Source: Leptogorgia sarmentosa
Lineage: Eukaryota
Assembly: GCA_964658305.1 (NCBI GenBank)
Contig: OZ210885.1
Coordinates: 10,602,001-10,666,000, forward strand
Length of the DNA stretch: 64,000 nt
Reading direction: 5' to 3'
The stretch's first letter is position 1. The number at the start of each line of letters is the position of its first letter. A program made the translations under genes and the position numbers. Positions 3,237-53,571 of this stretch are shown piece by piece. Below the pieces are notes generated by a model. It saw only the letters and a program-made list of their open reading frames with translations, did no database searches and was not told where the DNA came from.

Positions 3237-3708
3237 TTTCAACGTTTCGAACAAAGGCTCTTTATTGTGAATTCGCGGTTCAGAAGGGGCACATTCTTCA
3301 ATCAAATGTTGTAAAGATGTGCCGGGGCGAAAGGTGTCTTACAAAATTCGTACACGTATTCGTATCACAAAAACGTACCGCGCGTGCGTACATAGAAGCA
3401 AACTGGTATCATTTTGTATGGCACGGCATTTGTCTACTATATTCGGGTTCTCGGCACGGGTAGAAAAACGGCACGAGTGCCAAAAATAGAAATGTTGACA
3501 AGTTGTTAACACATAGAAATTTCACGATGCCGTTCCAATAAAAACCGGCACCCGTAAATGGGCCTTTAGTGCCACGTATTTTGATGTTATCTGCATTTTA
3601 ATGTATGGAGTGCATAAAAATGTTATGAAATTCATTGATTGCAGCTGAAAGTCTTTTTAAATTGCGTATACTTAATTCACGTATATTTTATTTGTAGATC
3701 CCTGTATA

Positions 3709-4297
3709 ATGGAAAGTTACATATCAGATGAAGAATCCAGATGGGTTGTAACAGGTATTTGCCTTACCAAAGTTGTCACTCCCACCTTGAGGAAAGTTGT
3801 CGATGCAGAATTGAAGAGATGGTATCAAGACTTATGTAAGCCACCTGATGAAATTGACAAACAAACTTCTGGAAAGTATAAGAGAACACTTCCGCCATCA
3901 ACCTTTTCCTTACAATATAAAAACATCAACGGCAATAATGTGGGCAAATCTCCCAGTGCATATGACTACGCGGTGAAAGATGCTCTGTCTTTGGCAAAGT
4001 TGTTCGTTCAACCCTTCATGGCAAAGTTTACAGGTTTTGACGATACAATGGATCTTTCTGCTTTACTGACTATCATGTGTGAAGCAGATCCATTCATAAC
4101 ATCTGGTGCCTCAGTGTACGCAAAGAATGTAAGGTCAAACGTGAGAAACGAATGGGCCCATTGTAACTTTCCAAAATGGACCAATGCTTTGTTCAATGAC
4201 GCGATTCAGCACCTGCAATCGTTGGTGAAAAATATAAATTTAACAACTGCGGCTGAAAAAGAAGTGTGTGATGATCTTGAGGATTGGAAAAACAAAG
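3709..4297 (+). CDS. NLR coding exon 1: HEPN-like domain (Rx4H = RNEWAH)
   Basis: Acceptor tttgtag ending 3697 just before the ATG implies an upstream non-coding exon. Helical domain with DLSALL and RNEWAH (R146/H151). Donor AAAG|gtaatg, phase 1. Confidence 0.85.
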
Positions 4298-7200
4298 GTA
4301 ATGATTTAAGTTGCTTATACTTTATCGTATCGTTCGAAGGTGCGATGCTGCAGCTTCCCGCGTGGGAATGTGACCATTTATTGTGTTTCTGATTGATAAT
4401 TTGTGATTGTGTTCACAACAGCAGTGTTGGCAATGTCTTTCCTTAGCGTTTACTGTTATATTTTGCTAAAGTTTAATGACTGTATGCTAATTGTTACGAG
4501 TACACGAGAAAATGCTTCATTTGCTTTTGAAGTCAAACACTTAGCTAAAATCGGAGAATGTAAACCAATGCGCAAAAACAATAATTGTATTGAATAAGTG
4601 AAAAAATGAAAATATAATTAAATTTCGTAACACGCCCTCTTCTAGCGCCAACATTTTAAGGATAAGAAATACATGATGAAGTTTTTATTGACCCCCCTCC
4701 CCCCCCCCCAAAAAAAAAAAAACTGTTGTAAAAACTGTTGTAGGAAAACACAAAAGATCCTGTATTCTTACTGTTGTTAAGTATTATGTGCTGTTGGTCG
4801 TTAACAAAACTATAAAAGACAGTTCATGCCAAAAAACAAAACAAAAAGGGTACTTGAAGATCTTTGTTTATACTTCATTTCTCAGCATGATTGGATTGGA
4901 TTTCACAGACATTTTCGTTTAGATCTTTGGAATTTATAAGGTTCAGAATATCGCTATTAGATTTGAGTGTCCTCAATTTGCTTGTTAAATAAAATCAATG
5001 TGCAAGTGTCTTAAGAAATGCGTAAATATAACATTAAAATGTATAAACTTGACACAACAAATTTTCAGCTATTTAATTTTGAAACATTTTGGTATAATCC
5101 ATCATTTTCCTTCAGTCATTATAGTCACGGATTTTTCTTGTTCGAATTCTTGGTCTATATCGGTCGTGCGTGCAAAAACGTGTTTTCGGACTGAAACATT
5201 TTGGACTATGACTGACAAACCTGTGTCACAAACTTTTGTTTACGTTTTGTCAACGTTTTTAATTAGTTGAACAATCCAAAAAATTTTAAAGTATAAAATC
5301 AATTCATATGCATTATCTCTGTGTTCACCGACGGCACCATGACACATGAAGTATTTCCTGGCAGTTTCTGACATTTTACGAGGTTAAAACAATATGCGCA
5401 GAAAAGATGCGTAGACCGTGACACAGCTGCTTTAATTGCTGACGTATAATACATATCTCGACCAATCTAATCTCTTTTTGTTTCATTAGCTGACATTCAT
5501 TCTTTATTGATAGTTTCAAACGCTTTTGTTGACGGACGATACTCAAAATTAATTAAAGAAAGCTTGTCAGAACTTCGCAGATGTATTGAAAATTGGCATC
5601 TTGAAACAGACACGAAGGTTTGATGAATTTCTATTTTTGTTTTTACAAGCTCAGCATATCTCGCTTTACCGCGGCCATTTGTCGTCTATAATTGCTTACT
5701 AGCTGACCTTTCGATCATGGCGCAGGGTATTTGTGCTATTATGCTATTCGTTTCAGAGCGTAACGGTAAGAATCTTATATCTCTGCAGATGACCGGTGTG
5801 ACAACAAAGCTTGATAATATAGAGTCGAACATTGGTCTAGAGTTACGTGAACTACGCTGCAAAACAGAAAATGTTGAAGAGAAACTTGGTGCTCTTGAGG
5901 AAAAAATCAGGACGATGTGTCATAGTGAAGAAAAACATGAATATTCAGAGATTGCCGAAAATAAAGGTATTATAATTAGCCATTTCCGATTCGAGCAGAG
6001 GACTGAGTCTATTCGCCTGTTTTGGATGGACAAAAATAAACAAAATGCCGAAATTGACAGCTAGGAAGATTTCCTAAAATCTTTCTATAAAACTGCGGTA
6101 TGAGTGCTCAACCAAATAAAAAAGCTTGTGAAGAGCCAACCCAGCTCAACTGCAACGAGAGTGCTTAAATGACAATGTCAGATATTTAAGTTTCATTTTT
6201 CCATTTATGTCAAAATACCGAATTCGTTTATTTTTATTGTCATGTGATCTCGAATTCAGAGTTCAAATATACAAATTATGAGAACTGATGGAACAGAGAG
6301 AGCACAATTGTACTATGCGTTGTGTTCTAGTGTACCCTTATGTTTTCAGCAATTTCCATCCATCAAAGGTATTTGAGGTTAATTTCCATCCTTGAGGTAT
6401 TACAATGAGTCATGTTTATGAAATGAAAAACAAAAGTTAAGACTTTTCTTGTACTAATCACCATGAAAGATATATTTTACCAAAATCGATGTTAAATACA
6501 TGACAACGTTTTGCCTTGCAGTTCTGGTAAAAACTTGTAAAGAGATATCTTTTGAATGAATAATCTCCATGCATTTACTATAAATTTTTTAGGTTCAGTT
6601 GTACTCATCCAGCATAACTCGTTTATTTCCTATCTTAGATTGGTATGGTTTACGCAGTCTACCTCGTGACATGGTGAGAAGACCATCAGAAGTGAACGAC
6701 ATATTGAAGTTACTTACGGAGGGAAATAGTAAAGTTGGTGTGGTGGGAAGTCGCAGCGGTGACGTCGTTGGTATCCGTGGTATGGGGGGTCTGGGTAAGA
6801 CCATCTTAGCTCTGGCTGTCGCATGGGAAGTTTCAGTTTCACGTCAAGTGATATGGCTTGATGTTGGGGAAACTCCTGACTGTTTAGCACTGATTAACAT
6901 CTTAATAAAAGTTCTTGGTGGAGCAAAACCTTTCAGTGTTATCCGTGAAGCACAAGACTGGATTAAAAAGAACACAGTATGTATGCATTCGAATTTTTTG
7001 GGTTCAAAGCCAATTTCAAACAAGCCTTATTTTTATTCTTCCCAGACAAGCTCGTGTAAAGCCCGTTTTCCACTCACATATTTGGCCGCCGCTGGCGAAT
7101 AATTTTGCCACCGACAAATCTCAGTAATTCAGTGGCGAATGAATATAAAACATCATAATTATTCTTGTCAATTTTTTTCGCGAAATAATGTAGTGGAAAA

Positions 7201-10200
7201 TAGGCTTAAGGTTAAAGCATTACCATATTATTTAGATTATTATAAAAGGTACATGTTGTTTAAATAATATGGTATTACTTTACCCGTAACTTGTCTTGGA
7301 GTCCGCTGGGTCGTCCAGGGGTTAGTAACTTATCCACATTTGGTGAGGTTTGTAACTTACGCACTCGCTGAGGCGAACTCGCGATGTCCGAAAACTGTAT
7401 TTCCCGCATTTTCTTCGCTTAAATAAGACCTTTGGGAATTAGCTTGGAATTTGCATTGAAAATTAATGAATATCCAATTATGCATTAAATTAATGGGTAA
7501 TCACGCAGGAAGCAGCGCATAATCCAGTTCTCGCAGTGACAACACTGCGGGCAGCAAATTCAACAACACTTTAATAACTTGTACAACATGCTCCATATTT
7601 CGAGTCGATTGAATCAAAATTCGTGAAAAGAACATAGTTTTTGTGCCCAAGTTATTTTTAAAATGCTCTCCAGCATGAACATTTCCCACTCTGAAAAAGA
7701 AAGGAAAAAGATTTAAATAAACTCAGTGCGAGATGTACCAGAGGGTGTCAATCTGCATAGGTTAACTCAACGTTTTCACAGATTTCGTTAACGCACGTTA
7801 ATTTAAGGAATACTTCATACACTAAACTTTTTTTTGACACGCCCTGTATTTAGTCCTTGTTTCGCTTGGTTGTTCGAGATTCTTGGCTCCGCTGTGTTAC
7901 CCTTGAATTAAAAGTACTATTTAATATATCTTTAATCGGATTTGCATAGGAGTTAATAATGTACGTGGCGCGTTCCTTAAACACTCTCTAAAGTTTTAAT
8001 AAGCTGAAAGGTATAGTCGTACTGCAGTGAAGTCATTTCCAGGCTGTCTAGTGTGAAGACACTCAGCAAAAAGACCATACAGTATCTTACATGTAATATT
8101 TTTCTATCTATTGCAGAGCGATAAAGAATGTCTTGTAGTTCTTGATGATGTTTGGAATGTTAACGACGTTGCTGTGTTTGATACCTTGTCTGAAAAATGT
8201 CAGTTATTGATAACTACCAGAGATGTCAATGTTGTCCGCGGTTCAAAAGGTTTTGTCTACGAAGTCGATATAATGGAACAGGATAAATCTCGAGAGCTAT
8301 TTTTTCAAAGTGCTGGGATTAAGCAAGATGAACTGCCTAGCTTTAGTCCAAAAATGCAGCAAATTATTCAAGAACTATTGAAACAGTGCAAAGGCCTGCC
8401 GCTGGCCCTCTCGCTTGTTGGCTCAAATTTAAACGGCAATCGGTCGAAACAGGCTTGGCAAGATATTTTAGATGGATTTACTACTGATTTGGAAGAACTT
8501 CATTCAGTGGTTGCCACCGACAATTATCCTTATGATAACATCGTTACAGCCATTAATATTAGCTTTGAACGCTTAGAACAATGGGAACAAGAAAAGTTCC
8601 TAGATTTTGGTATATTTCCAGAAGATACAAATATACCTTCAGATGTACTGGAGCTGTTTTGGTCCGCAGAAGGAGCCGGTAGAACATCGTGTGAACCTAG
8701 GAAATCAAGACGTATACTTGATGCTCTTGAAAGAAAATCCATGATTCAAAAAGGTACACGAGCGATGTTTTAGTAAATCCTCACATTAAAATTACTCTAA
8801 ACCGCAAGTCGTGCATTGAATAACTGTCCTTTAAGTCAGAAGTCAAGTTGCAAAACAGTTTTTATGTTTGTATTACTATTTATTAGACAGTTTTAAAAAA
8901 ACGAAAACCTACTGTCCGTTGGATATCGCTTGTCAATGCACCAATGTCAGTAACTGATTGATGCTTGACGTCCCAAAAATCTTTTTTTCAGTACCTCAAC
9001 TTCAAGAGAAGACAAGCTACCGTGTGCATGATTTACTGCTGGATTTTGCCCGGAAAAAACTTAAAGTCACGGGCTCACTAACTGGTGTTCAGCGTTTGTT
9101 TGTGGAGACACTTCGTGGCCAATGCGTCAACGGTGAATGGAATGAAAATTCAACTACCGCGCAAAAAGACTATTACTTCAAGTTCCTTCCCTATCACATC
9201 TCCTCCTCAGAACAACACGGTGAACTACTTCAACTGTTCTTCGATTTAAACTGGCTTCAACAAAAAGTGAAACACATTGACCTACCGTCCGTAGTATCAG
9301 ATTTTCGTTTTTTGGGCACATTGTCACAGGAAACCCAACTCCTCAAATCATCGTTAATGTTTTCTTCCCACGTTATCGAGAAGAATGCTGATTCAATCTG
9401 TCCACAACTGCTAGGTAATAAAATAATGAACTTTATTTTATCAACGTTTCCTATAGTTTAGTTTACTTTTGCATTATCATTACCATTCCATTCTTTCCCC
9501 CATGCTACAGTCGTGGGAAAAAAATTGTAACAGCCCCAAAATCAAGGTGGGAGATTTCACGTAGCAACATTGAATTGGGGGGGGGGTCGAACGTTGGATT
9601 ACAACAACGTTTGTTCAAGATTCAATCTTGAACAAAAGCGTTGTAACTCCCCCCCCCCCCCAAAATCAATGTTGTTGTAAGCCGCTGCTTATTTCCTTTT
9701 CGTAAACGGTCGTTGGCTTCCAAAACGGTCATTACCTTCCCTGCTCACATTTGAATGTTACATAATACATTTCCACTATAAATAGTTTTGTTTTCGAAGA
9801 ATTTCAGCGAGCTCGAAATTTGCTCAGACGGTTAGGCGCACGATGCATCCAAGGGCGTCAATCCTGGGGGGGGATGGGGGGACGCGTCCCCCCCACTTTT
9901 TGAAGTGGGGGGGGACGAATATGTAATTATCCCCCCCCACTTTTTATCATGTTTGAAAAAATTGTTTTTTGGTAATCTTAAAACCCCATGCCTGTATGCT
10001 ATACATCGTGAATTGTGAAGTACAATCAACAATCTGAGATCAGAAGAAAACTATTCGGAGCCTTGGAATAGTTCTGCGAATGAAATCTTAATTGGAAAGG
10101 CAATAAACGGACCTCAGCCACGTACACACGTTCAAATTTGCTTTTGTTTTTATTGATCATTTTATGTACAACTAGTACTGATATAATTGTTAAAGAAATC

Positions 10201-13200: not shown

Positions 13201-16200
13201 CATTAATTTTGTTGAATTTTCTCAGAAGCTAGGTCAATCAGAACAGCAGTATATAAAAGCTATAAGGCTACCTGTCAGGGATGCCGGAAGTTATTCAAGG
13301 GAACGGGTGCAATTTGTTATCAAAAGGGCATATTTTTGACAAAAGGGCACAACCAAATATATGAAAGGGCACTTAAAAACCTATGACACAAGTTAATAAC
13401 TTTTATTGATTTGAAACAAAATTTAAACTATTACTATACATTGAGGCACATAGTCTTTTATGCATAAAGTTATTTCGTGCTCACTGTGCGTTCTGCGTAA
13501 GACGGTAAGATAGTTTAATGTGGCTGTCCAAAGTAGTCATTCCTTTGAGAAGACCTTGAAATAAAGTCTGCTGTTAACTTCTTTGCATTAACGTCGTCAA
13601 TTCTTTGCTTGTGAATTGCTGCAAACATGCAATTTGTAAGCATCCCTGGACACATTCGTGAGAATCCTGTACATAGAATTATGCGCGGTTGTACTAGAAC
13701 ACTAAGTCAATATATCATGGTTCATATAAATATTTTGTTTCGGTCAAACCTGTTCCACGGCACCTTCACTGCACCAGTGGCGTGCGGTGACCAATTGTAG
13801 TAGGCAAGCGGTGTTCATGGCGAAGCCGCGAACACCCTGAAGGGGGGTCTGGGGGGATTCTCCCCCAGAAAATTTTTGCAGTGACTGCACCCGTTGTGCA
13901 CCCGTAGTGCACGGAGGCAACGGGTGCAACTGCACCCACTGCACCCGTGGTTCCGGCATCCCTGCTACCTGTTATGCAGTATTTCATCTGTACTTCAACT
14001 ATCAACTGTCAGCCACCGATGATCAGATAAGAGAACTATAGCACGATCGTAAATATGTCTGTGATCTCATCTTCCCGAAAATGACTATGTTAAACAATTA
14101 AAACTTCCAAGATTTTTTTGAAGACACGACAAAAGAAAGATTATTCTTCCCATAGCTGAATTCGATATTTATGGACTTTATGCATAACCGCACATGTTGC
14201 ATATCCTTCCCGTCGTAAAGAACACTGCTAACTTAATCAAGAACACATGCATACTATACTCTGTTAATCGTTGGTTCTGACGTCAATAATTGTAACTAGC
14301 AACTAAGCATGACAACTGCTAGTATATTGCAGAATTAAGCCTCGTCAGTGTAACATATGCGGAAATAAATCATTTCATAAATACTCGTTCCGTTATCATA
14401 AAATAAATTACTTTTCTTTTTACTGTCACAATATAAAACAGAATACAACATCATTTTCAACAATTGCAAATCTTTCAAAAACGTTTTTTAGTGTCTCATT
14501 TTCAAAATTTTGATATTACTTTATGTCCCCTTTATATGAAAGTCACTGAAGGGGAACGAAAATTTTGTTAAAACAATGAAAAACTTCCTTTACAAATTAG
14601 AAAGGGACTCATATGATTAATTTTAAGAACCTATTGTGTTAATAATCAAGAAACAGATATATATAGTAATCAGATAGGCCCGTTAGTTGTTCAATTTTAA
14701 TTTTTCCCGGTCAAAAAATTGTCTTAATCTTTATATACGCTATTTTAAATGTTATGATTTTGTTACGTGCGTTAATAATGTTGTGTATTTTTGTTTTCCA
14801 GGCAGACTGCTATCTTATGAAGAGTTTCCGGGGATAAAGACGCTATTAGAGCAACTCCGTGCAACATGCACGGAGACTTGCCGTCTTATACCGGAATTCT
14901 CATGTTTAGATTTTGGAGGCCCAGAGATCTTTCGAAAAACGTTTGATTCAGAAGTATGCTCATTAGCGACGTGCAACACCTCATCCGCTACTCTTGTCAT
15001 TTGTGGTTTAGAGAATGGTTCAATCACAATCTTTGACCTTGACACAGGTAGGTAGCCGTGTGGTTAACGTACTATGGATAAAACTAATGGCAAGGTTTGG
15101 GGTTTTCAATAGTTTTTTTTTTCTTTTGTCCGATCGTCTGTCCGGAAAAGGGATAAAACACAGATTCAATGCCGCCTCTGCTTGGAATTGTAATTATATG
15201 TGCAACCATATCCTCACTCACATTTGTAAGAATCATCAGTTCTGAGTTATGCAAGTTGAGCGGCTGCGCGATATACGTGTATAAAAAACTGAGCAAATTT
15301 GAAATCGCTCTCAATTTCGCAAAGCCACTCGGGTGACGTTATTAATTAACAAAACTTTGCAGTGCAAAATCATCCTTTGTCAAGAAACGTTGTACTGGCC
15401 TTCAGCTTCAATTCTTTTTGTTAGCGCTGATAATGAACTAAATAGATAAAAAGTTTAATAAGTACATGTTTGACTTACCTGCTGTCACATGTGCAGTAGT
15501 TGATTAGATCGGAAATTTGACGGCGCTATGATCTCATGGAGCTCACTAGCCACTGGCCTCAGTGCTCATCCCATTATGCTTCGCATCACTATCGGTAATG
15601 TGGCTATGCTTTGCTTCAGTTACATGTCGGTTGTTCTCAGATTACTTACGTGCTTCTCTTTTCGGAATCGGCAAATAATTGATCCGCTCGCCACCGATTA
15701 ATCGCGGTATTTCGTTCGACGTCGTCCAATAATTGATTGTAGGTACCTTAAAATGTAAAACACAACAAACTCGACGACGGTAGTCTAAATTTCAGCTTGA
15801 AAATGAGTGCTGACCTTTTTATGCTTTAAATAGATGTTGGAATTTTTTCAAGAAACAGCTTCACAGGTTCAGCTAAAGCAATGCGATCGTTGCTGTGTAG
15901 TCAACTTGAAGTTACAGCTCTCACGTTGTAATCAGCCTTCACGTTGCTTTGAAGACGTTATAATGCTTGGCTTAACGTTGCGTTGATAACAACAAAGCCG
16001 TTGATACCACAATTTATGCTTGGTTTTTGTTCAGCATAAAAATTTGTTTGTTCGGAAAGCTCGTCGTCGAGTTGGTCACGTTGTAGATCTTAAGGTCCCT
16101 AATCCTCTGCTACAAAATTGCTATGACACCATTTTTGAACTTATCCACAATGCAGTTGTCTTTCTATTAAGAATGACAGAAAAGTCTGGTGATATAGTTA

Positions 16201-19200
16201 TAGTTTGATAAAATAAAAATAAACCACTGTATACACGCGTCATATTTCGCGCAAATAAGTAAGTATTAATAATATTACGCCATCCAAATCTCATTTCGTT
16301 ACACGGATAATTATCCAAATTTTTTAGACCTGCAGCCCACTGCCCCGGTTTTTGAGAAAAGTTTCAGTTTTGGAAGCAGACAAATTCAATTATATAGCGT
16401 ATATATTATGATTATATTATAAACATATTCATACATGCCTTTTTTGCTAAGTAAAAGCTTTGATCTTGCGTATTCACTGAAATGAGAATATAGCTAATAT
16501 GCAGTTGATATGGGTGAGGGAACAAAGGTTTACACTCGAAATAATTGATAATTCATTAGAAAATTAGCCAATCATGTACGGTAGTCGTCGTCATATGATG
16601 ATATTTGAAATTTGGTTTCGATACTTGAAGAGACATGTTCATGCAGATTTACGCTGGGATAAAAATTAATTCAGTCATTTCTTGAACAGGATCAATGTTT
16701 ACTGGGTAAAAAATAAAAAAATCTCACAAATGGCTGGAGGGAATGCTTTTGTCTGCAACATATTAATCAAACTATAAAAACCAATTCGGACAGAGTGACA
16801 TATTATTTCTTCTAAACAATAAAACATACAATTATTAAGAAATCGTGTGCATAAATGATATCTGCCAATTTTAAAATGTGAAAGTTCAGTAATTACAAAT
16901 ACAAGTAGGACAACATTCCTGTGCAATCATTGGTATTCACTGTATAGAACATTTCCTGTTTATGGCCTCATGCATGCTTTTCAATTATCTACTTTCTGCT
17001 CTACCACCAACATCAGCCGCTAAATTTTATCTAAACAGTAGTAAATATATTATAAATTTCAGTAAACTGTTCGGCATTGGAAAACAGCCATAAGTGTGGC
17101 TGCTCTACAATTAAACCCATGTTTGTATAGTATGTGTTTGGTGAAATTTACGATTTAATAAACGAATATACAATTTGTTACATCAAAACAGCAATAGATT
17201 ACGTGTATAGGTTACTTGACCGTTACTCTACCACTTTAGTTATTGAGCCAACGGGGACCAGTAGCGAATCTTACCCAAGCGTTCAAGACGTCACAAAAAT
17301 ATTTCGCACACTTATATTATAGTAGAATTCGCAATCAACCCCAGTTGACTCGATACCTATATCTATGGACATGCACAACAAAGATGAGGGCATACCTTTA
17401 TGAAATCCCAAGAATTAACGAATAAAAACACACGCCTGTGAAACACGCCACAGTTAATTCTGTCACAGTTTATAATTGCTGTTATTTTGTTTTTAGTATT
17501 AACAATCGTTTCGGTGTTTGTCAATCGCTTACATTGCAGTTTAAGTTGCTGTAGCTACGTAATAGTAAAAATGAAAGTAAGCGGTGTAAACAGAGTGTAG
17601 CTGATGGGTTAGTTAATGTTATAGTTACTTGTCTCAATCATTTATTCAATCGCCGCAGTGTTTTGAACAATACTTCCAGTGTAGTAACGATATGAGTGAA
17701 AATGATCTATTACACCCTTTTATGTACGTGCTATCTTATTTTATAAACAGGTAGAGAAGTTCAACAACTACTGGGACATTCTAAGGAAGTTAGCTGTTTG
17801 GCTGTATCACAAAGTGGAACAATACTAGCGTCAGGGTCGTGGGACGGAAGTACAATCCTTTGGAGAATGGACAGTTATGAACAGCTTTTTGTGTTCCAAG
17901 GGGAGAGTGAAGTTTATGCTCTGGATTTCAGTGCAGATGATCAGCGAGTGTTTATTGGAACAGACGATGGTAAGCATCTTAAACACAAGTCAAACAAGGA
18001 TATCAAAATGTTGTTCAGAATAGGTAAACGAAAATTTGCATAAACGTTTTCTCGACTTCCGCTCTGCTTAAAAGTTAGTATTAAAGTGCGCGAGTTTCGA
18101 TAAGAAATAAGATTTTGCTGACGTGTACGGATTTAACGTTTCTGAAGGAACGCCAGAAACGATGCCATTGGAGAAAAAATTAAATCCTTTTCATATTATG
18201 TTTGTCAAATAACTCCGCAAATGATCATACTTTCGGAAATATGTTACCCCGCCGCAGTGGCGTAGCCAGACCTTCATTTTTGGGGGGGCGAAGCAAACGC
18301 GGAAGGCGCGATGCCATCTAGGGGGGTCCGGGGGGGATTCTCCCCCGGGAAAATTTTGAAATCTGGAGTCCCCCAATGGCGATTTAGCCTGTTTCTGGGG
18401 TGAGATTTGTGAAAATGATTGGATTGAGATTGGTAGTCACATGGGTAGTCATCGACCCCCCCCGTAATTTCTACCCAGATTTCATCTTTTTAGGGCGCAG
18501 TCCTTCAGCCTATTGCGGGGCTGAGCCCCCCCGTGCCCCCCCTTGTCTACGCCACTGCCCCGCCGGTACCAAATTGAATATTGGAATACTTTTATTAAAT
18601 TAAAATAATTATTTTTTCTTCAAATACAAATACTTGAAAGTACGATCACAAAATGTTTGTTTTACTTTGCAAATTCAATGGCGTAAATCTCCAGTGACGG
18701 CCCTCGATTGAACTTTTGTGGATGGCCTCTTAATTATACCTCTTAGCTTCACATTTTTACTATGCTAACTCTACGAAATATTCTCCTGAATTCTGCATAT
18801 GATATGCATTTTAATTCTGCTATTTCTTATCGAACATATTATAGCTATTTAACATCTCTTCTGCTTCAATTATACCCAAAAGGCAAAAACGTTCCGTAAA
18901 AAGAAGCACACTAAAATAAGTTCCTATAAAGCAGAAACAATGACAACAGTAAAAGTTTGACTGCAATATACAACAATTAATATACTGTCAACATCCAAGC
19001 ACAATTTAAAAGGCAACAAAATTGTTTCAGCTAGCTACTGAATGATATCAAACATTTTGTTAACTTCAAACATTTTTGCATCATCAGTTTCAATAAAAAT
19101 TATTTGAATTTCACATTAGCCACGGCCCTGAAGAAACCTCTTCCCAGGGCCCCCGGCCAGGTTGGGCCCCTAGTAGTTACGCCTCTGTGCACATTAGCTA

Positions 19201-22200
19201 CACCGCTGCTTACTAAAAAAATTTGCTTCACATTTTAAAGCAAGAACGTTTATGAAGCGGGTTGATGCATATCGTTTCAGTTTTTGGGTTTCACTGTAAC
19301 GTTCCATATTTGAGTGGGAGTACACTCTAATTAGCGACGCAGTCATCACAGTGAGTTAAATATTCACTGTATGTATTCAACTTGTGCTTCGTAGTGAACA
19401 TGTGAAATTCAGAAGGATTTCGTCAGATTCGTTGATACATTTTAGAAAAATGTATTACTTACGAAAAGTACTCTTTCTCTCCAACACCATATTAATTTAG
19501 GTCGAATTCGCCCTATGTCGCGTGCGAATAAACCAGAAGCGAGTTTATCCAAGACTGAAAAACATACGAATACGCACCCTACGTAATCAAAGCCATGTTT
19601 TCCACGTGTTTCATACTATTGCGCAGCCTGATTTATCCTGTTTTAGTAAATGCCGTGCGCGTGCGGAAATTTTTGACAATTGCAAAAAAGCTTGTAGAAA
19701 TGTTTTTATACGTGCAAATAACACGAAATATTCAAAATAAAAAGAACATAACACAGGTTTCATGACTATGCGGCTTCAAGGAGAAATAAGGACATGGAAT
19801 TCAACATATTGAACTCTGTTTTTCTCACTGATAGATGCTAATATGCCTTACGTTTCCGACGATCAATCTTTATTTTTTTTTGTGTGTTGTGTTTTAACTA
19901 CCATGTAACCCACCGTTCGAAAGATCAGTTTATTAGGATTTGAATGGTGTTTGTCTTTATTTCGTGCGGTATATACTCAGTGAAAAAAAGATTTATAAAA
20001 ATTTGTATTTCAACTTTCGGAAACGTGTTGGAGAGAAAGAGAGCTCGTTTGTAATCCGTCGTACATTTCAACCATTTTATCTGAACTCGTACCTGTAACC
20101 TGTTGTACTGTACAACAGGTTACACCTTGTATATAATCGACTACATTTGAAAACAAAGTATATTTTCATTATTTTGAAGCGAAGCCCACTGGCATACATG
20201 GCCCTTGCTTCACGGTTCTAACTTTCACGATCTGTAACCAAGTTTTACCAACAGTACCACTGGTATGGATGCCCTGTACAAAGCATACAATATTTGACCA
20301 CAATGTGGCTATGGTAGAGGGTTGGTTTATGAAATTTACAAACGGCATCGTATCGTGTGATTGGACAATGTTCACTAATTCTTTTTGTGCTTGATGCCAG
20401 GAACAGCAGTTTTACAACGTAGCTGTAGTAAAATGATTTCCGGGGAAAACCAGTTACGTCTGTTTGAGTGGCACCTCTCAACCTTCGTCAAAAGTACAAA
20501 TTGTTCATATTCAAACAATAATTGCAACAGCTGGTTTGAGGATTCCAGAGACTGCGTATCTTCAAACCAGCGGTTAACTGTAAACGTCGTGTAGAGCGCA
20601 GTGAAACGCAGTGTAAAAACATAAGCCAGCAACAGCCAGAGCATGTTCAGCGCCGGAGAGGGACACAATTAAAAACAAGATTTCACAAAATCCTCTAGAG
20701 TTAGACATTATTGAAACATCAGTCTGACGAGTATCCATCATGCGTTGTAGGGCTGAAAGTGTATTGTGTATCTACCGGAGAAAACCTCTCAACAAGTATT
20801 CCTGAGGGAGTCAGGTCGCTGTGTACGACAAAAGATGGACAGTTCATTGCTACTGGTGGATATGACAAGACTATCAAGTTGTGGAAAGCCGATACACTAA
20901 ATTTTGAGGCCAGTTTGGTTGGCCATACAGATTACGTGAGCTGTGTTGTCGCAACAGGTATGCAATACTGTATGAGTTAATATTTCATAACATTTTGAAG
21001 AACTTATTTCAATAGAATCTCTTCAGAATTATATTTGTTATTTCTTTCGGATAAAACATATTCTTTATTATAAACTTCCTTAATGGTTAATAAAGCAAGG
21101 ATTGGAGGGGAATATCATGTTTTGGAATAAAATTTCCCAATTATTGCACAAAAATACCTGCTTGTAACAGCATTACAGCATTCTAATATTGTAAGGAAAA
21201 ATTATGCCTAAAAAGAAAGCAATGTCTTTCCTTAATTGTTAGTATGGTGGTAACCAGTGCTTTCGTGTACAAGCACTATTTTAGGACTTTCTGATTTCTT
21301 TCAAATTTTTAGACTGGTTGTATGTATTTGTATATGCTAAGAGTATTTTAAAATGGCCATTAGATTTATCTATGATAGCTTTCTAAATATACTTTGAGAC
21401 AATTTGCTTGTGTGTATATTTCAACTGATTACCCTGTGTCGCAGACCTTAATGTATAAATTGTGATACTGTACAAGTAGATTCGAAAGACTTGGCATTTA
21501 GGCCGGGTATTGTATATTTTATTAGCGTTTAGACCTCTTGTAAGTAATAATAGTCGGCCCTAAAAGTAGAAGCAGGCCAGGGGCGTAGCCAAGGGGGGGC
21601 AAGGGGGGGCGGTCGCCCCCCCAATAGGCTGAAAGACTGCGCAGTAAAAAGATGAATCCGGGTAGAAATTAGGGGGGGGGGGCGATGACTACCCATGTGT
21701 CTACCAATCTCAATCCAAACATTTTCACAAATCTCACCCCAGAAACACGCTAAATCGCCATTGAGGGACTCCAGATTTCAAAATTTTCCCGGGGGAGAAT
21801 CCCCCCGGACCCCCCTACATGGCATCGCGCCTTCCGCGTTTGCTTCGCCCCCCCAAAAATGAAGGTCTGCCTACGCCACTGAAGCAGGCTATGAAACAAG
21901 GGAATGCATGAGAATCAAGTTGTAGTTTGGGGGGGGGGAGAGGCCCAGGGGGAACAGAATCCAAATCTTTACTACTTTACTATTAAATGTTGCAACTTTA
22001 AGTAAGTTTCAACTTTAACTTTCGATAACTTAGCAACAAGAAGACATGATATTTTTGGTTGGGAAAACTTATTACTGTATTTGCAACTTGCAATCAGCAA
22101 GGCGGCATTTTGAAAAAAAAACATATAAAAGATAGTGAATGATTGAATCCTACAAAATATTTTAGTACATTTGGGAAATTCTCATGTCTATCAGAAAGCT

Positions 22201-28200: not shown

Positions 28201-28658
28201 CAAAACATTGGTACATATAGCTACTTGTGAAACGCATTAATAATGCACGAAGAAAACAAAGAGGAAATCATCAGCATGCAAGTGTCAGTATATGTAATAC
28301 GCAAATTTCGGTTGACTGGCATAAACTATAAGTCTATAACTTTGATTTTCTGATGCTATATGATATCAGATGTGTTTTTAAAATTAAAGAAGGTTTGTAT
28401 CAGACCCTAAAAATCGAAGGCATGGACTGGAAATTCAGACTTAAACTGCACGACATCCGCGTCTTGCGCTTTGTTTTGAAACCTGTAACTTCACATTTAA
28501 TCCATTCCAGGACTTCGTACTGACATATTTTAAACCCGAACCGAAAGAAATGTACATTTACATATAATATATAGTAAGAAAGCATAAGAATGACCGTTTT
28601 AAGTAGGTTATATTTTAATATTAAAAATAGTCTAGTAAAATTGTATATCAGTATATGG

Positions 28659-28691
<33 letters not shown>

Positions 28692-37600: not shown

Positions 37601-40600
37601 TTAATGCAAATATCCAATTATGCATAAATTAATCGGTAATCACGCAGGAAAGAACGCAAAATCCAGTTTTCGGACATCGCACGTTCGTCTCAGCGTGCAC
37701 TAAATTTCTCAAAACTTGAATAGCTTGTATATCATACTCCATAATTTCATCCGATTAAATCAAATTGTGTGAAGAAAACTTTTTTTTCCGCGCAAGCCGT
37801 TTTTAATGGGCCTTTCAGTAACCACATTTCCAATTCTAAAAAAGTTTGTTTGTAAAATAAACTTAGTGGTAGATATACCAGAGGGTGTTAAACTACCCAG
37901 GTTAACCAAAAGTTTTTGGAAATTTTGAGCGCTCGTTAGTTTAGAGAATGTTTTTCATCAGTAAACTTTTTTTGATACACCCTGTATAATACCAAAATAA
38001 CAAAAGGTTTTTAGCAAGCTGCTGCCATTTTGGTGTATTTTGACAACATAAATCGCATTTACCTGATCGAGAATTGCGTGTAAATAAACTGCGATCACTG
38101 TCCGAAGAGCGTTTTGAAGAATGGATAGATGATTTCACTTCGTGTCATCGTATTGCGAAAAAATGTATCTTGCCCAGGCTTTTTAAAAACTCGGATACAT
38201 TACATTGCGTGATTATTTTGACTTCGTATCATCGTATCATGTCACTGCTTCAAAAGTGGACGGGTATTCTATAACCCTCCCGGGATTTTAAAGTTTGAGC
38301 GCTACGGCAGCACCATCCTTGCGATAGTAACTCCTAGTTAGCACGCATATTGGTGTAACTGAGCTAAAAACATATTGATGGATTTTGGCGTTATCACTGC
38401 GCCATTCGCGATTGGTTTTGCCGAAGGTCTTCGCTAGCGGCCACTGCTCAATTTTAAGTTTAATCCCCCTTCTTTATGTAAAGATTTTACTAATTTAGCT
38501 GCATGTTTTATGCGGCCGTAGTTTTCGATTCTTGGTACATCTGGAACCCAATTTATTTTAAAATCTAAGGCACGTTAATTAAAAATGGCTCTCACAAAAA
38601 AAAACGAAGATAATTGATGCGATTTGATTCAATCGGGTCGATATACGGAAAATAGGTTATATTATCGAGCTTCGAGAAATTTGGTACACGCTGATATTAG
38701 CCGGAGATGTCCGAAGACTTTTCAGCTGTTTCCTGAGTGATGAACAATTAATTTTATGCACGCTCGGATGTTTGCGTAAATTTCAACACAAAATTTGCAA
38801 TCCAATTCTCAAAGGTCCCTATGAAGAGAAGACACGCTTAAATGAATGCAAGAAAGAGTTTTGATTATGGATACAAAGTTTCCTAGAACAAAGACTGGCG
38901 CAATTAAGTGAAAATAAATGACAGTCAATCATCCAAAATATCTTGCCCACCAGAAGTCATATACTCAACTTTGAATTCCAATTTTGCTCCATGGCATGGA
39001 TTGAAAATGTTTATTTTCTGATGAATGTAATTTCCATTTAAGTTATTTGCCTGTTTGATTCCTGATAAGCCTAAATAGAAGGTATAGAGTGTAGATGTTT
39101 AGTACAACATGCAAGATCAAGATCTGTTGAAATTGCTCGAATGTCTATACTTGGGAAAATACTAAATTCAGGATTTAGTATTGTCAGAATTCTCATGCGT
39201 GTATTTTATTTCATGATGACGAATTATATTAATTAACTGTTCACTTATAATTGTTCACATGTAACCTTCATTGCATGGGTAGCAACTTTACCCGGTGCGT
39301 AATAAGGATTTTTTAGCAAGGGCATAACAGACATCAACATTGTGAATAGAGTTGATTTTCATGTTCGTATTGATTTTAGTCAATTACGTTGACGCTGATT
39401 GGCCCAACGTTAAAAATTGGGAAAACAACCTTGTAAAACAACGTTAACATTTTTGGTTTTCTTAATTTTTGTTTGACTTTGTTTGCGCACTGTGTAACTG
39501 TGTGATATACAAGTGACGCTATTAGTAAATTACATTTGCTCGCAAAGTATTCATGAAAAATTACACTCGTGTTTGGCAAAATTGCACTCGTTTTCCGCGC
39601 ATATGGCAATAATTTAGCAAGAATTGTTCTAATAAACGTGAATGATGAAATTTACATTTGCATTGTAATTACGAAACCCAACACTTCATTTAGGTTTACA
39701 CACATAAAGGACAGTTTACTTGATAGATCGTCCGTAAATTTACTGTTAAAAACTGAGGGGATAACACATCCATCCCCTCAGCCGAAAAAGTAGGTCACAT
39801 GTTTCATCCGATCCCCCTCCCCCCCTGCATGATTTACCCCCTTGCCTTGATTCACTCAAAATACCTATATTATGTAAAATAAATTCAAGATTTTCGATTC
39901 TGAAAATTACGCTTTCGAATCGGAATCACGAATTCGAAATACATAATAATAAGCATTTATAACTTAATAACGTTTTGTGAATTGGTGAGAAAATATTTAA
40001 TGGCAGGACGTAATATTGAGCAGTTTTTTGATAATTTTGACAGATTCATCAGGTAAATACAAATGGAGTCGTGCATAGTTACGAATACTTCTACATGGGG
40101 AGAATCCAAACAATTCGCGTGGTCCACAACTCTCTTTTTTGTGCTCATAAGAAGGCATATCGTACTGAAGCTGAAGAGAAAATCACAAAGTGGAACTTGA
40201 ACGGCACCGGGAGCGAAAGCAGCAGTATTTTCTATACCGAGAAAGTTTTAAGAATTAACAATTCTGGCAACCTGGTGGCTATATTAGGTATATAATTTCA
40301 TTGTTATTATTTTATTTTCTTCTCTCAATTGCACGAGTTGTGATCGGGTAATTCATCAGTTTCATCGAGTATAAGCGGAAGTTTCGAGTGAATAACATTG
40401 GAAAACTAGAAGAAAAACATTAGCATAGCCTTAGGGGCCGATTACATGGAGGATTTTCAACCCCGGGGGTTAAGTCAGCCCTGTTGACAGGGCTGAAAAT
40501 TCATCCCTGCCTCCATTGTAAACCCCCATTAAAAATTCACGCGATTACATGAGAAAAGTTTCAACCCAAGGCCGAGTTCAAACCCGGGGTTGAAATTTCA

Positions 40601-52600: not shown

Positions 52601-53571
52601 GGAAAGAAACGTCTGATTTAAACCTGTGTCATTTACACGAAACTTGCTGAGAAATTTGTGCACGTAAATCGCAGGTTACTGTGTCTATATTTCCTTATAA
52701 ACATGGCATGTTAAAAAATCTGAAAGTGTTAAAGAATTTATTTATGATGATTAAATAGAACTTGTCGCGCTTCCCGAGACAATCCACAAATACTTCATGT
52801 TCTGAAAACATATTTGGTTATTAAAGCGATAGGTGCTGAATGCGTTCATTTCTAGTTAATGTTATGCATAATTTGTTACCTCTCCCGTCGGTGAGGGGAA
52901 GCGCGTCAGGTAATTTGTTCGTAATGGCAAAATAATTATTCTGTATAACGTAACCGTTAGATAACACGGCTAACAATCCAAAATCATGTGATGGCAATAT
53001 TGATTCGCGTGACATGGCGATTCGATAAAATGGCTGTACATCCAATTTAAAATACGTCTCACGTTGTACCGAAAATTGCCTCGGAAAAAAAGAACATTGG
53101 GTATGATATGCGATCAAAATCTTTCGTTCTAACAGCCACTATAAAATTATAAAACAAGGCTATCAATCCAAAAGTGATCACAAAAATTGCCTCGCGTAAC
53201 ATTGCCGTAACTTAACAGATTTAAAAATTTAAATCACAATTTTAGGTCGTGGTTCTTTGGCGATTGAGAACTTCTTAACTGGAAAGGTTCTCCACAGATT
53301 TCCAATTGAAGATGCTGAGGATATCATGGCGTTGGCATTAGCGCCTGGTGGTGAGTTTCTTTTGTCATGCTCGAAATATGACAAGAGGCTGAAACTGTGG
53401 AAGCTACCAAATGGAGAGTGTGTTGAAGAGTTTCATTTCGACCGGGATGTTCGCGCCATAGCATGTGGCTCAAATGGAATGGTTTGTGTTGGCCTGGCAG
53501 GAGGCCGGGTCTGCTTCCTTCGTCTTAATAAGTTATCCTCGCATTCAAAACAACTGCAACCAAAAGGTTGA
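3709..53571 (+). CDS. 16-exon STAND/NLR gene: HEPN-like N-terminus + coiled coil + NB-ARC + WD40 repeats (APAF-1-like architecture without CARD), ~1,699-1,707 aa
   Basis: Exons 3709-4297, 5514(or 5490)-5617, 5789-5966, 6639-6976, 8117-8753, 8992-9414, 14802-15047, 17751-17969, 20751-20957, 24103-24343, 25672-25904, 27953-28050, 30986-31394, 33390-33997, 40044-40287, 53246-53571. All introns are GT-AG with matching phases; total 5100 nt (5124 with the upstream exon-2 acceptor). Motifs: Walker A GMGGLGKT, Walker B LVVLDDVW, LITTRD, GLPLA, VHD, QLLGRL, GH...W[D/N/K] repeats. Confidence 0.88.
5514..5617 (+). CDS. NLR coding exon 2 (helical linker; alternative in-frame acceptor at 5490)
   Basis: tag|TTTCAAAC...AAG|gtttga; reads VSNAFVDGRYSKLIKESLSELRRCIENWHLETDTK; phase 1 in, 0 out. 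Not in the ORF track. Confidence 0.7.
5789..5966 (+). CDS. NLR coding exon 3 (coiled coil)
   Basis: ctgcag|ATG...AAAG|gtatta; heptad-like LDNIESNIGLELRELRCKTENVEEKLGALEEKI. Confidence 0.8.
6639..6976 (+). CDS. NLR coding exon 4: NB-ARC N-part with Walker A
   Basis: cttag|AT (phase 1); VVGIRGMGGLGKTILA; donor ACA|gtatgt. Confidence 0.9.
7330..7846. mobile_element. Degenerate partial relative of the 37212-37984 fold-back MITE
   Basis: Shares GCGATGTCCGAAAACT...GACCTTTGGGAATTAGCTTG...GTAATCACGCAGGAA and ends ...TTTTTGACACGCCCTG-TA. The left boundary is approximate. Confidence 0.7.
8117..8753 (+). CDS. NLR coding exon 5: NB-ARC Walker B, sensor 1, GxP, winged helix
   Basis: ttgcag|AGC; CLVVLDDVW, LITTRD, CKGLPLAL, GIFPEDTNIP..L.LFW; donor AAAG|gtacac. 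Confidence 0.92.
8992..9414 (+). CDS. NLR coding exon 6: MHD-equivalent (VHD) and APAF-1-like helical domain
   Basis: tttcag|TA; YRVHDLLLDF, LPYH, WLQQK, QLLG; donor CTAG|gtaata. Confidence 0.9.
9850..10788. mobile_element. Non-autonomous hAT-type element
   Basis: 15-bp TIR CAAGGGCGTCAATCC; 8-bp TSD GATGCATC. Confidence 0.9.
11470..11985. mobile_element. PIF/Harbinger-like MITE
   Basis: TIR GGGGGTGTTTATATGGAGGCGAGC; internal AGCCCG repeats; flanks TTA and TAA. Confidence 0.8.
12825..12962. repeat. ~135-bp hairpin with degenerate GCGAA apex
   Basis: GCATGATATCAAGAATTATTCAGACC..GGTCAATGTTAT pairs with ATAACATTGACC..GGTCTGAATAATTCTTGATATCATGC. Confidence 0.78.
13276..13964. mobile_element. 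Non-autonomous hAT-type element
   Basis: 14-bp TIR CAGGGATGCCGGAA; 8-bp TSD CTACCTGT; subterminal TGCACCC and AAAGGGCA repeats. Confidence 0.9.
14802..15047 (+). CDS. NLR coding exon 7: end of helical domain, first WD40
   Basis: ttccag|GC completes QLLG-RLL; ICGLENGSITIFD; donor ACAG|gtaggt. Confidence 0.88.
17751..17969 (+). CDS. NLR coding exon 8 (WD40)
   Basis: aacag|GT; GHSKEVSCLAVS...LASGSWDGSTILW; donor GATG|gtaagc. Confidence 0.9.
18255..18557 (+). mobile_element. hAT-type MITE family A, copy 1
   Basis: TIR CAGTGGCGTAG; 8-bp TSD CCCCGCCG; near-identical to copies at 21578 and 59437. Confidence 0.9.
20751..20957 (+). CDS. NLR coding exon 9 (WD40)
   Basis: ttgtag|GG; IATGGYDKTIKLW...GHTDYVSC; donor ACAG|gtatgc. 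Confidence 0.88.
21578..21881 (-). mobile_element. hAT-type MITE family A, copy 2 (inverted)
   Basis: Ends CAGGGGCGTAG / CTACGCCACTG; 8-bp TSD AAGCAGGC. Confidence 0.9.
24103..24343 (+). CDS. NLR coding exon 10 (WD40)
   Basis: gtttag|AT; LVSGSHDGTIKIWD...GHSADI; donor AG|gtgggt, phase 2. Confidence 0.88.
25672..25904 (+). CDS. NLR coding exon 11 (WD40)
   Basis: tttcag|C (phase 2); LTASEDGSIRVWN...VSASKDGTFKVWN; donor ACAG|gtatag. Confidence 0.88.
26344..26870. repeat. Fold-back element with long imperfect inverted arms
   Basis: AATAAGTGGTGAGAAATTTTATAT...CAAATATTCCGTA mirrored by TACGGAATATTTGATAC...ATATAAAATTTCTCACCACTTATT. Confidence 0.75.
27953..28050 (+). CDS. NLR coding exon 12 (98 nt, WD40)
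   Basis: Pyrimidine tract then aatag|GT; GDLEWAKHVAVSADDRYVVSLSKDYRSTKSSIK joins VWN of exon 13. It supplies the required phase 1 to phase 0 bridge. Not in the ORF track. Confidence 0.78.
30986..31394 (+). CDS. NLR coding exon 13 (WD40)
   Basis: tttcaag|GTG; VWNL...IIGCKDYHVFIWD; donor GCAG|gtgggt. Confidence 0.85.
33390..33997 (+). CDS. NLR coding exon 14 (WD40)
   Basis: ctttcag|GT; GHPDD..VTAI, FASGCIGGSVKLWN; donor GAG|gtatgt. Confidence 0.88.
35973..36131. repeat. ~160-bp hairpin with CCGAGGCGAAGCCGAGG apex
   Basis: CACTTATTTACTGA...TGTGTTTTGTGGCCCC pairs with GGGGCCACAAAACACA...TCAGTAAATAAGTG. Confidence 0.8.
37043..37203. repeat. ~160-bp hairpin with CGAGGCGAAGCCGAG apex; partial duplicate at ~36920-37020
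   Basis: GTGCAATGGTAAGAATATTTTC...GGTGAAAGATGGAATGTTC pairs with GAACATTCCATCTTTCACC...GAAAATATTCTTACCATTGCAC. Confidence 0.8.
37212..37984. mobile_element. Tc1/mariner-type fold-back MITE with ~350-bp inverted arms
   Basis: CAGGGTGTATCA...TGATACACCCTG followed by TA; the arms are close reverse complements. Confidence 0.85.
40044..40287 (+). CDS. NLR coding exon 15 (degenerate beta-propeller)
   Basis: tttgacag|ATT (phase 0), open to TTAG|gtatat (phase 1); the phases fit both neighbours. Confidence 0.72.
40718..43317 (+). mobile_element. Autonomous hAT DNA transposon 1 (2,600 bp)
   Basis: Perfect 22-bp TIR TAAGGCTGTCCACAAGATGCTC; perfect 8-bp TSD AGTAGCGC (40710-40717, 43318-43325); subterminal GCAACTT repeats; intact ORF. 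Confidence 0.95.
41113..43032 (+). CDS. hAT transposase (639 aa from first ATG) with N-terminal C2H2-type zinc finger
   Basis: CDAC...HIKSQKH; catalytic-motif candidates VIFDGST, IRDGAAVN, CFSH, TRWWS, SAERVFS (hAT C-terminal dimerisation region). Single uninterrupted ORF. Confidence 0.92.
   Translation: MADNDTLPSSSSDSEENPEENQSTEENPLETAAAAGARLSTPDKADISRKRKVQTNPTGKKNVRGTVGPNVSAWERLKEFKDDYLTVESGKLRCDACKETISKKKSSVQKHIKSQKHIKSKDIMRKSKMKDQSIVDLMARNSRAKGSTLPEDMRLYRYELVETLLKAGIPLSKADVMRPFLEKHGHRLTSRSHLAEFIPLILKKEKDTVKAEIAANDNFSVIFDGSTRLGEALAIVVRFIDQWKIKQRLVTLEVLSKSLNAEQLAQRLIQCLAVEYAIKPNQLLAAIRDGAAVNGAGLRQVNFYFPNIFDVTCFSHTIDNVGEHFQFTVLETFSRYWNTMFSLSPAARLLWKTRTGTAMLRKSNTRWWSLWEVLNQVVEYFGDVEPFLRENDVSPACRTRLLELFDDPVSVRDLELELAAIIDAGKHFVSATYYFEGDGPLVFSCYEHLAALAHAIAIDSYPNTEAKARQYAAGNVPLYNQLIAQAKACITPGFRFYQQKFSREFHATVRAFKAARLCCPMKVQELHPDVASVQELKQFGFFTDAAIAQLVDELPKYLAIAEGVEIETEEGKVKWWSVHEKALPSWSTAVKKILLVQPSSASAERVFSLLQNSFNKQQDAALEETVEVSVMLRYNKRDD
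43681..43996. mobile_element. PIF/Harbinger-like fold-back MITE
   Basis: TIR GGGCCTGTTTATATGATCCC / GGGATCATATAAACATGCCC; TAA on both sides. Confidence 0.78.
45601..50298 (+). CDS. Spliced OTU-like protease / Pro-rich / TTF-type zinc finger / hAT transposase fusion (~1,199 aa, 4 exons)
   Basis: Exons 45601-45848, 46398-47302, 47734-47847, 47966-50298; GT-AG; phases 2,1,1; total 3600 nt. OTU motifs TRGDGNCLYRA and NHFVPL. Transposase motifs WLCYS..DGAFCLAC, ALRGH, LADEATD, GQGYDGA, HCTSHRLNL, TTRW, CECERSVSAL. Confidence 0.82.
47966..50298 (+). CDS. hAT transposase exon (ZMYM1/THAP12-like; DUF4371-type core and hAT dimerisation region)
   Basis: Uninterrupted 773-aa ORF with DDE-motif candidates, CxxH and RW. 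Confidence 0.93.
50347..50560 (+). repeat. 62-bp tandem repeat (~3.5 copies) downstream of the transposase in hAT 2
   Basis: GCTGGTGTTGGACGAAAACTAGAACATTTT...CTCGTCTCAAGTCTCCTTTC recurs with period 62. Confidence 0.9.
53246..53571 (+). CDS. NLR terminal coding exon 16 (WD40, stop TGA)
   Basis: ttttag|GT; LLSCSKYDKRLKLW...VCVGLAGGRVCFLRL; AATAAA at 53700-53705. Confidence 0.85.

Follow-up and report, generated by a model that had tools for sequence, protein, structure and literature searches.

Can the death-fold head of an Apaf-1-like receptor be exchanged for a ribonuclease (RNase) domain? The question is raised by a gene that occupies most of a 64,000-nucleotide stretch of Leptogorgia sarmentosa DNA (positions 10,602,001–10,666,000 of contig OZ210885.1, assembly GCA_964658305.1; this whole stretch is called the window below). 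The initial annotation, made from the letters alone, had read it as an APAF-1-like STAND receptor whose effector is a putative HEPN RNase instead of a death fold. In this work we find that the gene is real, intact and spliced. Sequence comparison gives good support for its head being a HEPN module related to DUF4559 (CXorf38) and Swt1-like HEPN domains, and suggests that this module has replaced a death fold on an NB-ARC–WD40 body.

Structure and splicing of the gene

The HEPN–linker–NB-ARC–WD40 gene lies on the + strand, where its motifs were located by six-frame reading of the window. The exon model was guided by P0001, a protein of 1,709 amino acids (AA) on a transcript-sized 5,604-nucleotide ENA contig, which can be aligned along the whole locus. 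The rebuilt model has 16 exons and a coding sequence of 5,094 nucleotides (1,697 AA), with a single, terminal stop and GT..AG borders at 15 of 15 introns, and it matches P0001 end to end with 974 identities over 1,727 columns (56%). It thus reproduces the phase-consistent 16-exon frame first proposed, with the motifs where they had been placed: RNEWAH at AA 146, GMGGLGKT at 338, LDDVW at 412, TTRD at 436, GLPLA at 496 and VHD at 627. The exons, in window coordinates, are as follows.

Exon 1, 3709..4297, + strand: HEPN module (AA 1–196), DUF4559/CXorf38- and Swt1-like, with D115 at 4051–4053 and R146-N147-x3-H151 at 4144–4161
Exon 2, 5514..5617, + strand: helical extension, homologous to the helix after HEPN in HEPN-NB-ARC-TPR proteins
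Exon 3, 5789..5966, + strand: likely coiled-coil linker (from a crude heptad count only), with a phase-1 intron at its end
Exon 4, 6639..6976, + strand: start of NB-ARC, Walker A GMGGLGKT
Exon 5, 8117..8753, + strand: Walker B LDDVW, TTRD, GLPLA, start of the winged helix
Exon 6, 8992..9414, + strand: VHD (MHD-type) motif, then helical domain
Exon 7, 14802..15047, + strand: linker, beginning of the WD40 region
Exon 8, 17751..17969, + strand: WD40
Exon 9, 20751..20957, + strand: WD40
Exon 10, 24109..24343, + strand: WD40
Exon 11, 25672..25904, + strand: WD40
Exon 12, 27953..28050, + strand: short exon of the WD40 region, located via P0001
Exon 13, 30986..31394, + strand: beta-propeller region
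Exon 14, 33390..33997, + strand: WD40
Exon 15, 40044..40287, + strand: divergent exon of the propeller region
Exon 16, 53246..53571, + strand: final WD40 repeats and stop

Acceptors for exon 2 at 5650–5757 were dropped for 5514 on the basis of the P0001 alignment and of contig joints. A Pfam scan of the exon frames other than those of exons 2, 6, 12 and 15 placed both NB-ARC (exon 5 frame, E 5e-23) and WD40 (six of the eight downstream frames scanned) above cut-off, in agreement with the domain assignments of the initial annotation. The full STAND motif set of NB-ARC (Walker A, Walker B, sensor, GLPL and MHD-type) is present, and the WD40 region spans about 900 AA. The absence of CARD, DD, DED and TIR noted earlier was also found here, as none of them matched the frame of exon 1 or of exon 3 at E up to 1. 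Immediately 5' of the ATG (window 3696–3708) there is an AG resembling a splice acceptor, and exon 1 may therefore be preceded by another exon, coding or untranslated; the relatives P0007 and P0008 have N-terminal extensions.

Contigs from runs X4–X6 (three samples of one study, the kind of run not being on record) are taken as spliced because they skip GT..AG introns. Introns 1–5 are skipped at the predicted sites, with a short-side flank of at least 31 letters in at least one run for introns 1, 2, 4 and 5, and one contig of 467 nucleotides, with six differences, carries the RNEWAH codons together with exons 2 and 3. These contigs support a splice path from exon 1 to the NB-ARC exons, most weakly at intron 3; they diverge by 1–3% and could derive from alleles or from close paralogues. 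None of the joints listed (15 of 67; intron 6 covered) lies beyond exon 6, and the continuity from head to WD40 is seen independently in P0001 and P0145. Loose contig ends at window 3715, 6643 and 6827 have different starts, or join exon 4-like sequence to different exon 3 ends, which suggests close paralogues and a small gene family in this organism.

The HEPN head and its relatives

An Rx4H motif appears in 5.6% of 10,000 shuffles of exon 1, and R[NDH]x3H in 0.9%, so that the assignment to HEPN is supported by conservation and not by the motif itself. In an alignment of 157 rows, 131 of which cover the motif (full-length rows being 27–62% identical to the query), R146 is conserved in 124, N147 in 122, H151 in 125 and D115 in 119 of the 131. 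R146 and H151, whose conservation had been proposed as a check, are kept together in 121/131 rows, and the full R-[NDH]-x3-H motif in 116/131, across corals, mussels and amphioxus. H168, the only other histidine of the query, is conserved in 1% of rows, and E34, the candidate acidic residue of an ExxxR/K motif, is not conserved (27/131). In CXorf38, D134 has been proposed as the upstream acidic residue (10.64898/2026.05.28.728550; here and below, published work is cited from the sections accessible to us); D115 precedes R146 by 31 residues, compared with 28 in CXorf38, and from this spacing the two aspartates may be equivalent. Conserved basic residues of the head are R11, R28, K97 and R142.

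Pfam cut-offs are passed by seven of 88 relatives, six for DUF4559 (one over profile positions 5–204) and one for HEPN_Swt1, in matches that take in the motif; with the threshold at E 0.05, HEPN_Swt1 is matched by 44 of 109 relatives and DUF4559 by 35. Because 81 of the 88 stay below the cut-offs and the query has no match at E up to 1 to DUF4559 (PF15112), which we take to be the CXorf38 family, we file the head as a sister family of DUF4559 and not as a member. The Atlas language-model neighbours of AA 1–200 of the homologue P0011 carry DUF4559 (score 0.97, 11% of members) and HEPN_DZIP3/DUF4559 (score 0.94, 38%/37%). Together with the conserved RNxxxH and the upstream aspartate, these matches of the relatives uphold the HEPN assignment made in the initial annotation. 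The query has no Pfam match to the DZIP3-like HEPN (PF18738), whose sole match at E up to 3e-4 among the 88 relatives is the second domain of P0265; hhalign to this family aligns the motif, but at E 0.2. An 11-column hhalign match to the KEN domain lay off the motif and was rejected.

The AlphaFold model of the head is all helical (predicted local distance difference test score 97), with the motif at the end of helix 134–150. The VIA structure search returned six HEPN-containing chains among 50 rows (by reading of the entries), tied with generic bundles, the best-covered match being the eukaryotic Swt1 HEPN. Profiles of the relatives support the suggested HEPN family; structure searches did not single out HEPN. 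PDB sequence searches of the domain gave nothing with A1 and just coiled-coil matches outside the domain with A2. With E up to 0.05, PADLOC matched the query to nothing, and its CARF_HEPN model matched three of 109 relatives weakly, at positions that were not checked. In a comparison without sampled bacterial relatives, nothing points to a recent bacterial source of the head. A homodimer prediction for AA 1–196 (score 0.01), run without alignment or control folds, is uninformative either way.

The same module is found on other scaffolds. Of the 23 long proteins found with exon 1 as query, 14 are named from two octocorals, Dendronephthya gigantea and Paramuricea clavata (13 from Dendronephthya); RNxWAH is present in 23/23 and a P-loop in 22/23, and most continue with TPR, beta-helix or MYND, WD40 being found in P0001 only. 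Among 35 long distant relatives, 26 carry a STAND-type nucleoside triphosphatase (NTPase): nSTAND3 in 15, NB-ARC in six, NACHT in three, NPHP3_N in one and AAA_16 in one. The rest have ROC-COR (two), AIG1 (one), kinase-KEN (one) or another or no listed domain (five). Both R and H are kept in 33 of the 35 long multidomain relatives. Ten distant relatives were looked up, six of which are named: Branchiostoma, Actinia, Mytilus (two), Xenia and Oculina. Immune effector domains typically move between scaffolds in this manner. The family comprises 537 clusters at 50% identity and appears to be a large HEPN subfamily that Pfam mostly misses, new in this work. The Xenia protein P0363 has an intact-motif HEPN head fused to a kinase and an RNase L/IRE1-type KEN, that is, two HEPN-type domains per chain. 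In P0011 and P0265 the module is followed directly by a DZIP3-like HEPN, and this tandem of two HEPN families might form an intramolecular site.

Probable exchange of heads on the NB-ARC–WD40 body

The close anthozoan group was collected with the NB-ARC region of P0001 as query. Its N-termini carry a DED in P0144, P0147 and Nematostella P0152 (above cut-off) and in P0146 (below it), tandem Death domains in Xenia P0149 and, by eye, in P0148 and P0150, and HEPN in P0001, P0145 and the present gene; the remaining rows are short or without an assigned domain. The NB-ARC of the gene is 42–63% identical to that of the DED- or Death-headed rows, and its motifs match those of these death-fold-headed relatives. 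The NB-ARC tree has 21 rows and a midpoint root only, and includes one vertebrate APAF-1 row (long branch), cnidarian CARD-APAF-1 being left out. In it the three HEPN-headed proteins form one clade (100/99) inside a ten-row clade (100/100) in which every other member with a complete N-terminus has a DED or Death head; a DED-headed Nematostella protein falls outside. The HEPN clade groups more weakly (88/85) with two Dendronephthya DED proteins. This tree backs the phrase 'instead of a death fold'; the term 'APAF-1-like' refers to the architecture and makes no claim of orthology to CARD-APAF-1.

In the HEPN-domain tree, the heads of the WD40-type proteins nest among TPR-type proteins. The exon 2–3 linker is homologous to that of HEPN-NB-ARC-TPR proteins (best E 7e-16), and a search with it gave no match in DED-headed proteins. 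The simplest reading of these observations is that an exon 1–3 cassette replaced the death fold; the HEPN and its helical linker would then have been transferred, as the sequences make likely, from the expanded HEPN-NB-ARC-TPR genes. For the three WD40-type HEPN heads, the data neither demonstrate one common origin nor firmly exclude it (approximately unbiased test, p-AU 0.042 and 0.075). P0145 is placed differently by the head tree and the body tree, possibly because paralogues exchanged heads or because of long branches. Its linker is extended at AA 255–325 by tandem copies of a 7-residue unit, and coiled-coil length thus differs between relatives. The NB-ARC region also matches P0156–P0161 at E 1e-55 to 1e-70, compared with 1e-29 for one vertebrate APAF-1; these unnamed proteins look bacterial, with TIR- or Mrr-like heads by our own reading.

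Farther downstream, intron 15 contains an apparently intact hAT transposon (window 40718–43317) with terminal inverted repeats of at least 22 bp, an 8-bp target duplication and a 684-codon stop-free frame (40978–43029) with a hAT dimerisation domain. It is enclosed by a second inverted-repeat element (40453–43409), into which it apparently inserted. Another hAT element of this intron (44946–50977), with inverted ends and an 8-bp target duplication, carries two frames: one of 785 codons for a transposase (47941–50295; DUF4371, hAT dimerisation), the other for an OTU-like protease whose tail is rich in proline (46330–47598).

Proposed mechanism, alternatives and known systems

STANDs oligomerise upon ligand binding. 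On balance, we lean towards an intracellular immune or stress receptor in which oligomerisation gates a predicted HEPN RNase. On this view, ligand binding to the WD40 propellers would put NB-ARC into its ATP state and make the protein oligomerise, which would bring HEPN heads together in pairs to form a predicted composite site for direct RNA cleavage, with no recruitment of caspases. The helical linker is possibly autoinhibitory, and the target could be host RNA, leading to cell death, or viral RNA. HEPN catalysis requires two RphixxxH motifs, in a site that spans two domains (10.64898/2026.05.28.728550), so ligand-driven oligomerisation would be a natural way to assemble it. Since binding to double-stranded DNA is reported for Apaf-1-like proteins of lancelet, mouse and human (PMC11747288), double-stranded DNA is one candidate ligand. 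A broader proposal is that a HEPN cassette replaced the DED in soft corals to give an 'RNase apoptosome' with Avs-like execution, HEPN being a plug-in executioner across NB-ARC, NACHT, nSTAND3, ROC-COR, AIG1 and kinase scaffolds of corals, mussels and amphioxus, and perhaps explaining part of the 'noneDetected' coral N-termini; this is tentative, and in our judgement somewhat more apt to be wrong than right.

Several observations weigh against an oligomerisation-gated RNase. The HEPN-family Pfam match of the query is below cut-off (E 0.078), Foldseek against the PDB gave nothing at E up to 0.001 with either model, and intron 3, which joins the head to NB-ARC, is crossed with a short-side flank of just 18–28 letters. 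In addition, CARD-less paralogues have been suggested to be relaxed and non-oligomerising (PMC10959488). The Foldseek result, the tie of the VIA HEPN rows with generic bundles and the lack of a PDB sequence match for the domain would all fit a non-HEPN helical bundle carrying a chance Rx4H. We consider this very improbable, as relatives pass the curated DUF4559 and HEPN_Swt1 cut-offs over the motif, the Atlas neighbours are HEPN-family clusters and six of the 50 VIA rows are HEPN chains. Still harder to credit is a gene without receptor function, in decay or produced by neutral shuffling: several transposons lie inside intron 15, and relaxed constraint has been proposed for CARD-less Apaf-1-like genes (PMC10959488), but the frame is open over 5 kb, spliced contigs exist, and two more proteins of the same architecture, one just 56% identical, retain the HEPN and NB-ARC motifs.

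The remaining alternatives accept the HEPN fold. The head occupies the position of an adaptor domain, its conserved R11, R28, K97 and R142 are compatible with RNA binding, and the eukaryotic Swt1 HEPN, its best-covered structural match, is regarded as inactive (PMC3710099); it could therefore be an RNA-binding or protein-recruiting stand-in for the DED, without significant catalysis. This seems rather improbable, since Swt1 is termed inactive because its motif is lost, whereas here the full motif is widely retained. If the head is an active RNase, its control might instead come chiefly from its helical or coiled-coil linker, or from pairing in trans with HEPN heads on other receptors (a sensor–helper network), and not from a homo-oligomeric wheel. 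In favour of such gating, HEPN and linker occur together in both WD40- and TPR-type proteins, a downstream helical bundle is modelled to autoinhibit CXorf38 (10.64898/2026.05.28.728550), and paralogous heads are many, both in Dendronephthya (13 of the 23 long matches) and, as the loose contig ends suggest, here. We find it unlikely, as the fully intact NB-ARC motifs, like those of death-fold-headed relatives, fit an autonomous switch, and the presence of the module on very different NTPases would be simplest to explain if proximity alone activates it.

The concept of a HEPN–STAND fusion is already published, cnidarians included. Work published in 2013 described fusions of CXorf38-family HEPN (Swt1-like clade) with NACHT, Death or ankyrin in cnidarians and cephalochordates, and predicted for cnidarian HEPN-NACHT an RNase L-like role in RNA degradation, apoptosis or antiviral defence (PMC3710099). 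The present head belongs to the same clade by the Pfam matches of its relatives and shares with CXorf38 the RNxxxH, an aspartate about 30 residues upstream and a proposed RNase L-like role. It differs in coming from a divergent sister family, in its NB-ARC–WD40 partner instead of NACHT, and in that the gene has no double-stranded RNA-binding domain (dsRBD), the Zn-ribbon insert of CXorf38 not being seen in the secondary structure of the model. In nine cnidarians NACHT is most often combined with DZIP3-like HEPN, Dendronephthya having 83 cases (PMC8260672); pearl oyster has more than 50 (PMC9646362), and HEPN fusions occur in cnidarian and oyster TRADD-N proteins (PMC8195603). For five stony corals, HEPN-NACHT-WD40 and HEPN-NB-ARC-TPR are tabulated among the matches listed (PMC10236652, additional file 17), and of the 226 NB-ARC rows there five end in WD40, all five DEATH-headed. 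The stony-coral DZIP3-like receptors (NACHT-WD40/LRR; NB-ARC-TPR) resemble the gene in their HEPN head, STAND NTPase, repeat sensor, lineage-specific expansion and proposed RNase role, but their HEPN is of a different family (hhalign E 0.2). The novelty first claimed is accordingly narrower: the pairing of HEPN with NB-ARC-WD40 and the death-fold swap were not found in print, in a search that left out most subscription journals, the data on two octocorals in Supplementary Table 5 of PMC8260672 and the PMC3710099 alignments, the last two of which may list this architecture or family. HEPN-headed STANDs are common in corals and molluscs, their RNase activity being so far a proposal.

In animals, NLR and Apaf-1 proteins are known to serve as scaffolds for the recruitment of caspases or kinases. 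What appears to be new here, from sequence comparison, is the NB-ARC–WD40 chassis and the evidence for HEPN replacing a death fold. The anthozoan CARD-less Apaf-1-like proteins of Nematostella, Dendronephthya and Xenia (PMC10959488) belong to the same NB-ARC-WD40 clade, with a DED or Death head where the gene has HEPN and linker, so that heads can be compared on one chassis. Should the RNase activity prove true, an early-branching animal would have immunity that is executed by an RNase and independent of caspases, and a large family of effectors mostly missed by Pfam would gain a name. With vertebrate APAF-1 the gene shares the NB-ARC and WD40 layout, the motifs and the C-terminal WD40 propellers; it differs in having no CARD in the exon 1 and 3 frames and in an NB-ARC identity of 25% (to one vertebrate row, a long branch). 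RNase L and IRE1 are dimerisation-gated HEPN-type RNases. Bacterial Avs/bNACHT STANDs carry enzymatic effectors, HEPN being listed for NACHT (PMC13581612; 10.1101/2022.07.19.500537). The predicted logic of sensor, switch and enzyme is common to RNase L, IRE1, these bacterial STANDs and the L. sarmentosa gene, which unlike the bacterial systems is an animal gene with many introns.
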